A stretch of DNA of 64,000 nucleotides from a bacterium (GTDB lineage: Bacteria > Patescibacteriota > Minisyncoccia > Phycocordibacterales > DATDWN01). Where the stretch lies: assembly GCA_037134875.1 (NCBI GenBank), contig JBAXLH010000004.1:1233-65232 (forward strand), in the 5' to 3' direction. The notes beneath the pieces were generated by a model. It had not been told where the DNA came from, did no database searches, and was given only the letters and a program-made list of their open reading frames with translations. A program made the translations under genes and the position numbers. Below are positions 1,773-13,587 of this stretch, piece after piece (the first letter of the stretch is position 1; each line of letters starts with the position of its first letter).

Positions 1773-3023
1773 CTATTTGGAGAGGTCGAGTGACCACAAA
1801 CTTCCATCTATTTTATTTATAAACACAAGGTATTGTTCGTTCGTACTGAGTAATGGTTTTATAACGTCTATTTGTTCATTTGATTCGCTGTACAAATTTC
1901 CTATAAGAGAAGAAGTATTGTTTTTGAGATCATATTTCCAAACATCATCTGTAAACTGAGAGTAACCCATATACCACAGCGTCATACTGTTTCCATTCAA
2001 ACTTTCTCGAGGAACAGCACAATACAAGATGTTTTTATCTTTCGTACTCCATACACACTTCTCTGGAAATGTTGCTGGTGTGATTTGGGTTGATGATTTG
2101 CCACTTATACTATAGACAGACATTGTGAGTGAGTCTGTTTGAGAAGAAAACAAAACTTTTGTCGCATCTGGGCTGACCAATGTAGAAAGACCACTAATAT
2201 CCCCTATTATTTTTTTTGATGTTCCGTTTGTTGTGTTTATAAAATACAAATATCCTGAAACATTTGGATAGGGTTTTGTTGTGAGGGCTACAGTATTTGT
2301 GTTTACAAATTGTGATAGAAGCTCAGTAAGAGGAGAACTCCATACTTGTTTTTTCTTTGTTCCGGAAAAATTTGAGACAATTCCAGATGTTCCAGATGAT
2401 CCTTGTATCAAATAAAATACATTTGTGTCAAAAACAGAATAATCTGTGATATGTGCTGGCAATTGGACACCTGAAATAAGGTTGTCAGCGGTTGACGTCG
2501 CATCTTTTGGTAGTGTTGTAGAGGCAACACCTTTTTGATTCAGTGTCAGAGTATATGTGTCTATTGTTTGATCATCATCTCTCAAGTATCTCGCAATAAG
2601 AGAGTTGTTTGTATTTCCCCACACAGCATCATATACAAGAGGAATTGTGGTATTTGAAATACGATTTTGGACTGGAGAGAAAAGCTCTGTTTCGTAGATG
2701 TGTCCGGTTGATTTTTCTATATGTCGCACCACACTACCCTGTTTTGTATCAACAATACCCGCACCTGCTACCGGGTCAGACCAAATTTTTCGCAGTTTTT
2801 GAACAAAATTTTGTTGCTGAGTATTTTTTTCTGGAAGAGTTACTCCTGTTTCTGTGGTTGTGCTTGTGTTTGTGTCATTTCCACCAAAAGGAAAGAAATT
2901 TTTGAATACAGACGTGTTTGTGTCAGTATTTACTCCTGGTTTTGTTGTAAAGTAATAACCAACCAGAATAATCAGAATTATTGCGAGTACTATTCCTATA
3001 ATAATAAAAAGTTTTTTTGACAT
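1773..3023 (-). CDS. hypothetical membrane-anchored extracellular protein (Thr/Asn-rich, possible beta-propeller repeats)
   Basis: 416 aa with an N-terminal TM anchor (MSKKLFIIIGIVLAIILIILVGYYF). It is the last gene of the minus-strand T4SS-like operon. Confidence 0.4.
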   Translation of the reverse strand: MSKKLFIIIGIVLAIILIILVGYYFTTKPGVNTDTNTSVFKNFFPFGGNDTNTSTTTETGVTLPEKNTQQQNFVQKLRKIWSDPVAGAGIVDTKQGSVVRHIEKSTGHIYETELFSPVQNRISNTTIPLVYDAVWGNTNNSLIARYLRDDDQTIDTYTLTLNQKGVASTTLPKDATSTADNLISGVQLPAHITDYSVFDTNVFYLIQGSSGTSGIVSNFSGTKKKQVWSSPLTELLSQFVNTNTVALTTKPYPNVSGYLYFINTTNGTSKKIIGDISGLSTLVSPDATKVLFSSQTDSLTMSVYSISGKSSTQITPATFPEKCVWSTKDKNILYCAVPRESLNGNSMTLWYMGYSQFTDDVWKYDLKNNTSSLIGNLYSESNEQIDVIKPLLSTNEQYLVFINKIDGSLWSLDLSK

Positions 3024-3026
3024 AGA

Positions 3027-3965
3027 TTATTTATATGTAACATGCCAATGATCCCCTGTAGAGGCTGGTGCTGTTGCCGTCCCACAACAATCTTTTGGCT
3101 CCCACACATACACCGCGTTTCCAATTGTATATTTATTTCCAGCGGCCGCACCACTACATGCTCCTCCTGATGATGTTTGACATATATTTGAATTGTTTGA
3201 CCATCCATTTGTGATTGTATTATTTACTGCAGTATTTGCCTCCAAATCAAGAGCGTTGCCTGTTGCATGGGCAGAATTTGTCGCATGACCACCTTCAGTT
3301 CCACCTTTGATAACTACACAGTTTGTCGATTGTTGTTGGGTTGCTTTACAGAGTTGTTGTAAAGATTCAACTCCATCAATAGTCACTTTTTGAAGACCAT
3401 TCAAATTGACACATCCTGTAGTGTTGTTTCCTGTACAAGCCCCTGCATATGTTTTTACACCAGCTGCTTCGAGAGCGTTTCGATTTGTCGCATCATCTGC
3501 CAAATCACTTCCACTGATTACAGCAACAGTTGGCATATTGGCATAGGTTAAATTTGGCCGTGGCACAGTTAGGTTAAAGTCGAGTATTTGAGGGTTGATT
3601 GTGTTGAGGATTGCCCATGCACCAATAACAAACAAAAGTCCCCACAAAGCCTCCTCTATCCTTTTTCGTCCATCTGATTTACCTGAAATAGCGTCAGAGG
3701 TCATATATTCAATACCCCCAAATGTAATCATAATAAAAGCAAGTGCAGCAGCAATTCCAATAGAAAATTTGAAAACGCCAGGAAGGTATGTTGAGAGATC
3801 GGTCTCGCATTTTGTTCCTGTATTACCACCACATTTTGTTGTGTATGGAAGTGGGGCAAGTGTTACGTATGTATCAAGTGCTGCAAAAGAAATATTAACA
3901 ATACAAAACAGTCCATACATTACCATTCCTATTCGTGCTATTAATTTAAATTTTTGTGAAGTCAT
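3027..3965 (-). CDS. hypothetical membrane protein, Cys/Gly/Thr-rich C-terminus; possible T4SS pilin-like or surface component
   Basis: Two hydrophobic helices (GLFCIVNISFAAL; IGIAAALAFIMITFGGIEY...ALWGLLFVIGAWAIL) followed by a Cys-rich extracellular region. Start trimmed to the internal ATG (MTSQKF) at 3965, to avoid a 61-nt overlap with the upstream gene. Confidence 0.35.
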   Translation of the reverse strand: MTSQKFKLIARIGMVMYGLFCIVNISFAALDTYVTLAPLPYTTKCGGNTGTKCETDLSTYLPGVFKFSIGIAAALAFIMITFGGIEYMTSDAISGKSDGRKRIEEALWGLLFVIGAWAILNTINPQILDFNLTVPRPNLTYANMPTVAVISGSDLADDATNRNALEAAGVKTYAGACTGNNTTGCVNLNGLQKVTIDGVESLQQLCKATQQQSTNCVVIKGGTEGGHATNSAHATGNALDLEANTAVNNTITNGWSNNSNICQTSSGGACSGAAAGNKYTIGNAVYVWEPKDCCGTATAPASTGDHWHVTYK

Positions 3966-12151: not shown

Positions 12152-12165
12152 TTAATACGCATAAA

Positions 12166-13587
12166 CTAATTAACTGGAATTACAGGTATTGATCCATTTG
12201 TTGGTGGCGGAAGTGTTGTTGAATCTCGTTCTTTCTGCATTGTATCCTTCATCTCTGCTTTTGATGGGATATCAAGTTGTGTCGAGGGAGCAGTAGGCAT
12301 CGTTTCTTGTTTTACTGTTGTTACAGTATTGAGAACATTCTGATCCTCGGCTTTTGATTGTACTGACCCTGCTGTCATTTGCTGGATAAGAGATGATGGT
12401 TGAGACGGACTGCTCTGTGTGAGTCCTCGTACCCCCTTGCCTATTCCTCCTACAACCTGCTGTACAAGTTGTGTCATAAGGGCACTGACAACTTGGTTTA
12501 TTGATTGGGTCAGCTCGAGTTGTCTGATACTACTACCAAACGTGTTTTCAAGTTGGGATTCAATAACACTTCCTGGAGTATTGACTTGTGTTTTACCATT
12601 TGGGCAGTCTGCCAAGACGCTGTTGTTTGATGAAGTGTCAACACGACTGTTTCCTGTGCTGAGTGATCCCTGACTCACCCACTTGCTTCCAGTGTATACT
12701 TGAATATCACTTTGAGTACATGATGGACCGACTGGGCCATAGTCTGGTGCAGGATAACTTATTTCTACACCGTTTATTCCAGTACCAACGACACCCTTGA
12801 GACACACTGTCCTTTTTGATCCCGTTGTTGTTTGTCCACCACTATCTTCATCCGAATTATCACAGGTTTCCCACGAGAGAAATCCGCGACCTTGGGTAAT
12901 TTGTTCGCTGTATTTTTTGTTTTGTGTACCGATTTGGGCTGAAAGTGAGTTTTTTGCCTCTAAATATGCACCATACGGGTTGTTTTGATTGTTTTGAGTT
13001 ACCTGAAACCATGACTCCCATCCACCATTGTCAAAGTTGTTTGTAAAATTATCAAAATTTTGTTCTATTTTGCCAAGTGTACAGGAATAACCCCTAGTAT
13101 CAGTTTCTTGTAGATAATTCTTGACAAGAGCGAGACGAATCTGGGCCTGGAATGGACTACAAAGTGAACTCAACGTTCCGTTTCCTGAGAGAAATTTTGC
13201 TGCAACATTATCTCCAACATTGAGAAAAAAACTTTCTGGATTTGTTACATATGCAGGGTTACCTTTGAAACCACTGTTTATCCAGTTGACTGTTTGTGCG
13301 GTAAGTTTGCGAATAATTTGTTTTGCAACGGCGTTTGCGAGAGTATCGAGGACGAATGATTTTGCATATTGGGCAAAAGAAAGGCCTGTATTTACTGTGT
13401 TTATTCCAGCATCTACACCTGTCGTAATAGTTGTTAATCCTCCCTCAACCTCTTGAGGTGGATCAAATGACACATCTCCTGCTCCAAGAAGAGCATGACT
13501 CTTTATTGGAAAAGTGAAAAGTATCAAAAAACAACACAAAACAGTCAGGATTATTTTTTTTGATGTATTGTTTATAAAATTCATCAA
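12166..13587 (-). CDS. hypothetical secreted protein
   Basis: 473 aa with an N-terminal signal/TM (ILTVLCCFLILFTFPIKSHA), first genes of the minus-strand cluster. Confidence 0.4.
   Translation of the reverse strand: MMNFINNTSKKIILTVLCCFLILFTFPIKSHALLGAGDVSFDPPQEVEGGLTTITTGVDAGINTVNTGLSFAQYAKSFVLDTLANAVAKQIIRKLTAQTVNWINSGFKGNPAYVTNPESFFLNVGDNVAAKFLSGNGTLSSLCSPFQAQIRLALVKNYLQETDTRGYSCTLGKIEQNFDNFTNNFDNGGWESWFQVTQNNQNNPYGAYLEAKNSLSAQIGTQNKKYSEQITQGRGFLSWETCDNSDEDSGGQTTTGSKRTVCLKGVVGTGINGVEISYPAPDYGPVGPSCTQSDIQVYTGSKWVSQGSLSTGNSRVDTSSNNSVLADCPNGKTQVNTPGSVIESQLENTFGSSIRQLELTQSINQVVSALMTQLVQQVVGGIGKGVRGLTQSSPSQPSSLIQQMTAGSVQSKAEDQNVLNTVTTVKQETMPTAPSTQLDIPSKAEMKDTMQKERDSTTLPPPTNGSIPVIPVN

Follow-up and report, generated by a model that had tools for sequence, protein, structure and literature searches.

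Two adjacent genes for the VirB4 motor in an origin-proximal type IV secretion locus of a patescibacterium

Introduction

A large part of bacterial diversity belongs to the Patescibacteria, which live attached to host cells. Their type IV secretion system (T4SS) is, to our knowledge, unique among such systems in having been shown to be essential for growth of the bearer. The subject here is a T4SS-like gene cluster at 1773-13587 on the minus strand of a 64,000-nucleotide stretch of patescibacterial DNA (contig JBAXLH010000004.1 of assembly GCA_037134875.1), called the window below, in which the VirB4 motor is encoded by two adjacent open reading frames (ORFs). The cluster is very probably a chromosomal and vertically inherited T4SS of the class Paceibacteria, derived from the MPF-FATA conjugation machinery of monoderm bacteria, with a VirB4 motor made of two polypeptides and a role in exchange with the host cell. 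A first-pass annotation of the window had proposed a T4SS-like operon at the dnaA/rpmH/rnpA/yidC locus with VirB4 in two adjacent ORFs, a description that profile matches and marker genes support, and had suggested that VirB4 was either genuinely split or inactivated by a frameshift. Comparative sequence analysis indicates that the split is genuine and is the normal state of the lineage, neither an error nor a pseudogene.

Two ORFs that together cover canonical VirB4

The ATPase is encoded on the minus strand at 5654-7474 in the mechanical ORF list. Its product scores 371 bits (cutoff 325; 1e-110) against the NCBIfam model NF045971 for CD1110-type VirB4, whether read as 606 or as 603 aa. Further matches are to P-loop_TraG (3e-28), AAA_10 and DUF87 in Pfam, and to the C-terminal domain of VirB4 (4ag5, 4e-40) and TrwK in the PDB. 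The Walker motifs are KSGAGKS (A, 6668-6688) and VIDEAW (B, 6050-6067). The first-pass annotation had named a VirB4-family ATPase on its DEAW motif, and both this assignment and the positions of the two ORFs hold.

The mechanical ORF begins at TTG 7474, which had been taken as the apparent initiation codon. In the comparison set of 80 related species genomes, 78 of which carry enough upstream DNA, an ATG aligned to position 7465 (MGIFD...) is kept in 70 of the 78, or in 77 if a nearby in-frame ATG is counted, and conservation does not extend to the codons upstream. The exact 603-aa form is on record at NCBI (MEI6843281.1). Initiation is thus most likely at the conserved ATG and not at the TTG, which places the gene for the ATPase body (the remainder of the N-domain plus the RecA-like ATPase) at 5654-7465 and widens the spacer to the preceding ORF from 2 to 11 nt.

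That preceding ORF (7477-8115, minus strand) encodes 212 aa and ends in TAA, 2 nt ahead of the mechanical TTG and in another frame. Hidden Markov model (HMM) searches divide the N- and C-terminal parts of VirB4 between the two products. Matches of the 212-aa protein to full-length VirB4 models are confined to their N-terminal stretches (NF045975 at 102-235, 8e-12; NF045971 at 2-119, 9e-7; TIGR00929 at 4-178, 1e-5), and the ATPase covers the complementary parts (NF045971 at 183-733 of 752, TIGR00929 at 269-725 of 792, NF045975 at 276-893). Together they tile canonical VirB4 collinearly and without overlap, a pattern repeated in all 79 family members scanned. The canonical single-chain architecture is absent here, with a stop codon and 11 nt between the two ORFs.

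The small protein also resembles TrsD/TraD. Its score against the corresponding model, NF041427, is 27.6 bits (E 2.3e-6), below the curated cutoff of 200 bits, and 77 of the 79 family members match the model at E <= 1e-3. By profile similarity it is a homologue of TrsD/TraD that lies outside the curated subfamily NF041427. The Pfam family PF26593 (“TraC-like”) is listed as a precomputed match for each of its 120 nearest homologues, at 80-88% identity, as well as for the fused forms described below. A search of the PDB with the single sequence returned nothing relevant. The AlphaFold2 (AF2) model gave a clearer result, as its top 14 PDB matches are all R388 TrwK/VirB4 (E 8e-4 to 8e-3, probability 0.98-1.0, TM-score ~0.45-0.46) and the next ones are unrelated folds at E 0.2; the search output carries no aligned target residues, so that the portion of TrwK matched is not specified. 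On profile matches and predicted fold, the 212-aa product is a stand-alone, TrsD-like N-terminal module of VirB4, and the ATPase ORF is without that region. The resemblance to a VirB4 N-domain that had been noticed at the first pass is borne out.

It could be argued that the 603-aa ATPase is complete by itself and that the small protein, as a paralogue of the VirB4 N-domain, has an accessory task such as regulation and is not a missing part of VirB4. TrsD is without an assigned function even in pGO1, and in Gracilibacteria TrsD homologues do not adjoin virB4 (PMC12102498); a gap of over 400 nt separates the two genes in some genomes of the comparison set. Against this stand the start of the 603-aa protein at about position 183 of 752 in NF045971 and 269 of 792 in TIGR00929, where the small protein fills the missing N-terminal positions, the large family of collinear fusions in Ca. 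Colwellbacteria, and the listing of the TrsD homologue as essential in Ca. Southlakia (PMC12102498). The accessory role is accordingly considered distinctly unlikely.

Conservation of the split and a natural fusion

The first-pass annotation had proposed to compare split and fused VirB4 in related genomes. Separate ORFs, each with its own stop codon, are present in 78 of 78 related species. The relative frames of the trsD-like gene and virB4 are distributed 38/25/15 over these loci, so that all three frames occur, and the spacers, whose median is 5 nt, range from -4 to +506 nt. In four loci (L033, L058, L063 and L069; spacers 426-506 nt) an unrelated ORF of ~120 aa sits between the two genes, and we take its product to resemble the four-helix-bundle / 23S rRNA intervening-sequence protein family. 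Homologues of the 212-aa protein number more than 7,900, and the 120 best are without exception stand-alone proteins of 210-251 aa. In a library clustered at 50% identity, 2,483 representatives match it, and 149 of the best 150 are shorter than 450 aa.

Substitution patterns point the same way. Synonymous divergence is saturated in almost all species pairs (pS ~0.85), so that the estimates draw on pN/pS together with the 7-11 unsaturated pairs: pN is 0.25 for the 212-aa gene and 0.14 for the ATPase gene, and dN/dS in the unsaturated pairs is 0.16 and 0.095, respectively. By these measures both halves of VirB4 are under strong purifying selection. The exact 212-aa (MEI6843282.1) and 603-aa (MEI6843281.1) sequences are recorded in NCBI, JGI, ENA and Logan assemblies.

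The exception among the best 150 representatives is a 797-aa protein of Ca. Colwellbacteria (MBI3088895.1), in which both modules are present and collinear; it is 42% identical to the 212-aa protein and 51% identical to the ATPase. At least 118 clusters of 775-807 aa were retrieved with the fused sequence as query, and each has PF26593 and the ATPase domains. The locus of the fused gene (L082:544-2937) has prgI, yidC, rnpA, dnaA and dnaN as neighbours. Compared with the window, the modules, their order and the neighbours are the same, whereas the fusion is a single ORF with a linker that is ~23 residues shorter. As Rosetta-stone evidence, the fusion suggests that the two proteins of the window work together as a single VirB4. 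The natural fusion also offers a direct handle for testing the assembly of the two chains.

A 600-aa protein (P0294; L081:1213-1667), 88% identical to the fused form, was considered as a recent fission and ruled out, since the interruption is a run of N in the assembly. The artefact calls for caution when split and fused states are counted from protein catalogues.

The alternative that a frameshift, an assembly error or a recent pseudogenisation has broken a normal virB4 of ~800 aa and left the system inactive would account for two adjacent ORFs in different frames whose lengths add up to canonical VirB4. It fails to explain why the same split recurs in every related species, in all three frames and across spacers as long as 506 nt, some of which contain another gene. 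Nor does it fit thousands of stand-alone homologues of ~212 aa, strong purifying selection on both halves and identical sequences in several assemblies, and the sole apparent split among the fused relatives is a run of N. On these sequence comparisons the alternative is refuted, and its residual probability is close to nil. Of the two options in the first-pass annotation, genuine splitting stands and inactivation by frameshift falls. A small “hypothetical” gene upstream of virB4 is better annotated as a part of the motor than read as a sign of decay.

Genomic setting and inheritance of the cluster

The window has a low GC content of ~38%, and the nearest loci come from metagenome-assembled genomes of Zambryskibacteria, Paceibacterota and “Parcubacteria”. 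At its origin end lie the 5' part of dnaA (2-304, minus strand; Pfam DnaA_N, 3e-16), which runs off the window and serves as an origin marker, and on the plus strand rpmH (543-686), rnpA (690-1028) and yidC (1034-1762), identified by the Pfam families Ribosomal_L34, Ribonuclease_P and 60KD_IMP. The rpmH-rnpA-yidC flank of the cluster is kept by synteny in 40-60 related loci. The minus-strand cluster is tightly packed and convergent with yidC. Nine co-directional genes had been counted at first; the ORF list gives 10 within 1773-13587, and 11 with the syntenic gene at 13654-14475. On the far side the locus is bounded by ksgA/rsmA (16107-16892, minus strand; Pfam RrnaAD, 7e-55), which is syntenic in 51 loci and is a typical neighbour of virB4 (PMC12102498). 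Scans of the window for promoter and terminator consensus sequences were not above chance, so the operon boundaries are drawn from spacing and synteny alone.

The recurring order in related loci is ksgA, 273-aa, 473-aa, VirB6-like, (436-aa), prgI, trsD-like, virB4, (203-aa), 341-aa, pilin, 416-aa, yidC, rnpA, where brackets mark variable members. The order of ksgA, T4SS genes and yidC-rnpA is kept across dozens of species, and together with the adjacency of dnaA this argues for a chromosomal location and vertical inheritance. Median aa identity across related species is 81% for VirB4, 67% for the TrsD-like protein and 53% for PrgI, compared with 50% for ksgA, 47% for yidC and 38% for rnpA among the flanking genes. 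The motor is therefore more conserved than its housekeeping neighbours, which fits a strongly constrained chromosomal system passed on by vertical descent and not a mobile element.

Neither a relaxase nor a coupling protein (VirD4/TcpA) was found in the 11 cluster genes or in the 20 next-largest ORFs of the window, which are housekeeping genes and a type IV pilus cluster; the absence of VirD4 and relaxase had been noted at the first pass and is upheld on this wider set. The relaxase and coupling protein that define a conjugative, self-transmissible T4SS locus are thus not seen among the ORFs searched. Since neither accompanies the cluster, plasmid conjugation is unlikely.

On a related view, an integrated conjugative element that carries DNA from cell to cell would have its transfer module in this cluster. 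This view draws on the placement of this VirB4 in the MPF-FATA conjugation lineage (PMC12102498) and on a tyrosine recombinase at 38118-39107. The recombinase, however, is 24 kb away amid housekeeping genes, and relaxase and coupling protein are missing from the ORFs searched. The cluster is flanked by ksgA, yidC, rnpA and dnaA in dozens of species, has a GC content like that of its surroundings, and contains a VirB4 more conserved than the adjoining housekeeping genes, as expected of constrained vertical descent. The reading as a conjugative element is very unlikely.

Other components of the machine

The gene directly upstream of the trsD-like gene, in the window (8153-8587, minus strand) and in 78 related loci, encodes a PrgI/VirB3-like protein of 144 aa. 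It belongs to PF12666 (38.8 bits, cutoff 27, 1.4e-9) and has two adjacent transmembrane (TM) segments within residues 19-65, in agreement with the two-TM VirB3-like protein of the first-pass annotation.

A 748-aa polytopic protein (9905-12151, minus strand) with at least six TM segments and a charged cytoplasmic C-terminal extension is the candidate VirB6. Its gene is upstream of prgI, a position that matches pCF10 (PMC12857230). The TrbL/VirB6 family PF04610 is matched by 7 of 60 orthologues (best 6e-5), whereas the window copy has no Pfam match even at E <= 10, and a PDB profile search with it returned only low-complexity and coiled-coil noise from the charged tail. The earlier description as VirB6/TrbL-like is sound as to the polytopic topology and weak as to family membership.

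The pilin candidate (3027-3965, minus strand) combines a signal peptide and a helical hairpin with a Cys-rich C-terminal domain. The pilin family PF18895 matches 70 of 71 homologues (best 4.5e-12); the window copy reaches 21.5-22.8 bits, below the cutoff of 26.6. The AF2 model (pLDDT 85) has two long helices. The homologue matches and the modelled hairpin together place the protein among the predicted VirB2-like pilins.

Its C-terminal domain spans ~165 aa and carries the motifs GGTEGGH (3285-3305), SAHATGNALD (3246-3275) and DHWHV (3039-3053). In the alignment of homologues the H, D, E and H-W-H columns are invariant or nearly so, with a conserved H-x2-G-x-A-x-D. The zinc ligands expected of LAS/M15 hydrolases are H-x(3-6)-D and H-x-H, set in a Hedgehog/DD-peptidase fold. 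Weak matches of homologues are to Peptidase_M15_4 (four) and HH_signal (two), and one relative (P0474) has a VanY domain in place of this domain. Of 17 matches in a PDB profile search, 16 were Hedgehog N-domains whose alignment falls on the zinc-binding motif, but their E of ~0.5 is not significant. These similarities suggest a pilin-tethered zinc peptidase of LAS type, a candidate wall hydrolase in a cluster that has no recognisable VirB1. With such an extension, the passage of the machine through cell walls could be addressed directly. A second possible hydrolase of the cell wall, a protein with LysM and Peptidase_M23 domains, is encoded close to the T4SS, three genes past the cluster (19143-20300, plus strand).

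Proposed mechanism and comparison with known systems

In the preferred interpretation, the 212-aa TrsD/“TraC-like” protein supplies roughly the first 180 residues of the N-domain of canonical VirB4, and the 603-aa protein supplies the remaining N-domain and the ATPase, probably as a hexamer. The small protein would form the membrane-proximal part of the N-domain and link the ATPase protomers, and it most likely docks the ATPase onto the PrgI/VirB3-like protein and the VirB6-like channel. This docking role is proposed because the VirB4 N-domain joins protomers and contacts VirB3 in solved T4SS structures; according to a 2025 review (PMC12857230), these N-domains connect the protomers, are embedded at the membrane and touch both VirB3 and VirB8. 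Co-assembly would be helped by the order of the genes (prgI, trsD-like, virB4). The VirB6-like protein would form the channel, and the pilin and secreted proteins the extracellular part. The whole machine most likely serves contact-dependent exchange with a host cell, by export or uptake of proteins. The same review speculates that the pilus is a conduit to the host (PMC12857230).

In a survey of 3,035 patescibacterial genomes (Quinonero-Coronel et al., 2025; PMC12102498), VirB4 forms a monophyletic clade nested in MPF-FATA, and TrsD is the most abundant component, with 2,272 homologues, 1,664 of them adjoining virB4, and with remote homology to the VirB4 N-terminus. The survey also reports PrgI/VirB3, VirB6 and VirB2-like pilins, no relaxase, and a location of the Paceibacteria T4SS near dnaA, dnaN, rnpA, ksgA and rpmH (PMC12102498). 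In Ca. Southlakia epibionticum, the one cultivated model, T4SS genes and pilins are essential, and protein export or another non-conjugative role has been proposed (Wang et al., 2023; PMC10633639). The window locus shares with these systems (PMC12102498; Southlakia SEML1_0006-0019, PMC10633639) VirB4, an adjacent TrsD homologue, PrgI/VirB3, a VirB6-like protein and a VirB2-like pilin, as well as the lack of a relaxase or adjacent coupling protein, the proximity to dnaA/rpmH/rnpA/ksgA seen in Paceibacteria, and vertical inheritance on the chromosome. Nothing essential differs, although the accessory secreted proteins are lineage-specific, and Southlakia has six pilins whereas the window locus has one recognisable pilin with an extra C-terminal domain.

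The locus is therefore the TrsD + VirB4 arrangement already published for Patescibacteria, including its origin-proximal location. The first-pass annotation had implied that the split was unusual; it is normal in this lineage and documented (PMC12102498). The locus remains useful as a clean Paceibacteria example of the patescibacterial T4SS.

The staphylococcal plasmid pGO1, of the pGO1 subclass of MPF-FATA, likewise has a small homologue of the VirB4 N-terminus (TrsD) just upstream of the VirB4 ATPase (TrsE). The match to TrsD is remote (27.6 bits against the cutoff of 200), and pGO1 is a conjugative plasmid with relaxase and coupling protein, whereas the window locus is chromosomal with neither nearby. 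Single-chain VirB4, represented by R388 TrwK (PDB 7o41, 7o43 and 8rtb) and by the CD1110-type proteins of integrative and conjugative elements in Firmicutes, is covered collinearly by both window proteins together, in contrast to which the window has two polypeptides, with ~15% sequence identity to TrwK.

Direction of transport is the point on which another reading has been considered, that the machine is an importer of DNA or nutrients analogous to ComB or Ced, and not an exporter. The absence of relaxase and coupling protein agrees with an importer, as do a P-loop that weakly resembles that of CedB, an import ATPase of archaea (1e-7), and the speculation in reviews about pilus-mediated uptake from the host (PMC12857230). 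The CedB match, however, covers only a generic P-loop region far under the cutoff, competence in Ca. Southlakia needs comEC and the essentiality of its T4SS is independent of comEC (PMC12857230), and the window locus itself bears no indication of transport direction. An importer is judged unlikely, and exchange with the host by the two-polypeptide machine is preferred.

Several points weigh against the preferred interpretation. The contact between the two polypeptides and the docking on PrgI are what we infer from homologous systems, the AF2 model of the TrsD-like protein is of moderate confidence (pLDDT 70, TM-score ~0.46), and the 748-aa protein is a plausible VirB6 whose family evidence is weak for this copy. 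Only 64 kb of the genome is in view, and a relaxase or coupling protein may lie elsewhere in it; VirD4-like genes are far from virB4 in many Patescibacteria (2025 survey, PMC12102498).

Two modest additions to the known system emerge: the fused form of ~790 aa in Ca. Colwellbacteria, and the pilin with a domain resembling LAS/M15-type zinc peptidases. In the text of the 2025 survey (PMC12102498) no mention was found of a TrsD-VirB4 fusion, of Colwellbacteria or of a pilin-borne peptidase domain. A more speculative extension is offered tentatively. The motor may be a two-chain VirB4 whose fission or fusion state changed within Paceibacteria (split in the Zambryski/Taylor/Wolfe type, fused in Colwellbacteria), with the free N-module acting as an adaptor that joins PrgI/VirB3 to the ATPase and is dosed separately; and a LAS/M15-type cell-wall hydrolase tethered to the outer end of the pilin might replace VirB1 or attack the host wall.

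Remaining genes of the cluster and its surroundings

The cluster also contains genes whose role is unassigned, all on the minus strand. The last, at 1773-3023, encodes a 416-aa protein with one N-terminal TM segment (anchor or signal); it holds the same position in 63 related loci, and its Pfam scan gave only sub-threshold Kelch matches. A secreted protein of ~334-341 aa (3970-4995, with a possible start at ATG 4974) has an N-terminal signal-like segment and is present in 77 related loci. Between it and virB4 lies a variable member, a 203-aa membrane protein with two TM-like segments (5029-5640; 43 related loci). The 436-aa protein at 8591-9901 is charged, of low complexity and poorly conserved, with partial coverage in only 16 related loci. 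The 473-aa secreted protein at 12166-13587 has an N-terminal signal-like segment and eight Cys, and is found in 58 related loci. An N-terminally anchored protein of 273 aa (13654-14475), co-directional and outside the span flagged at first, is probably the product of the first gene of the cluster, as it lies between ksgA and the 473-aa gene in 36 related loci. None of the unassigned cluster proteins has a credible Pfam match even at E <= 10.

Divergent from the cluster, at 14546-16096 on the plus strand, is a gene for a secreted protein of 516 aa with an apparent internal duplication, the repeats being visible by eye (...VKPGDLVSYTW... and ...VNVGDALSFKW...). No family match was obtained for it, and a copy was detected in just 17 of the related loci. 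Beyond ksgA lies a UvrD/PcrA helicase (16922-19018).

The expected place of oriC is the dnaA-rpmH intergenic region at 305-542 (238 nt), with a single-mismatch DnaA-box match at 386-394. Matches of this kind are not enriched, occurring at chance level over the whole window, and GC skew is uninformative at this intergenic region. The earlier placement of the cluster next to oriC is thus carried by the marker genes (the dnaA N-terminus and rpmH) and not by DnaA boxes.

A type IV pilus or type II secretion-like cluster occupies 24757-31777 on the minus strand. It includes a PilB-type ATPase (29987-31777), a PilC/T2SSF protein (28753-29967) and a 611-aa protein (26838-28673) with an N-terminal methylation motif and CarboxypepD_reg/SpaA-like domains.

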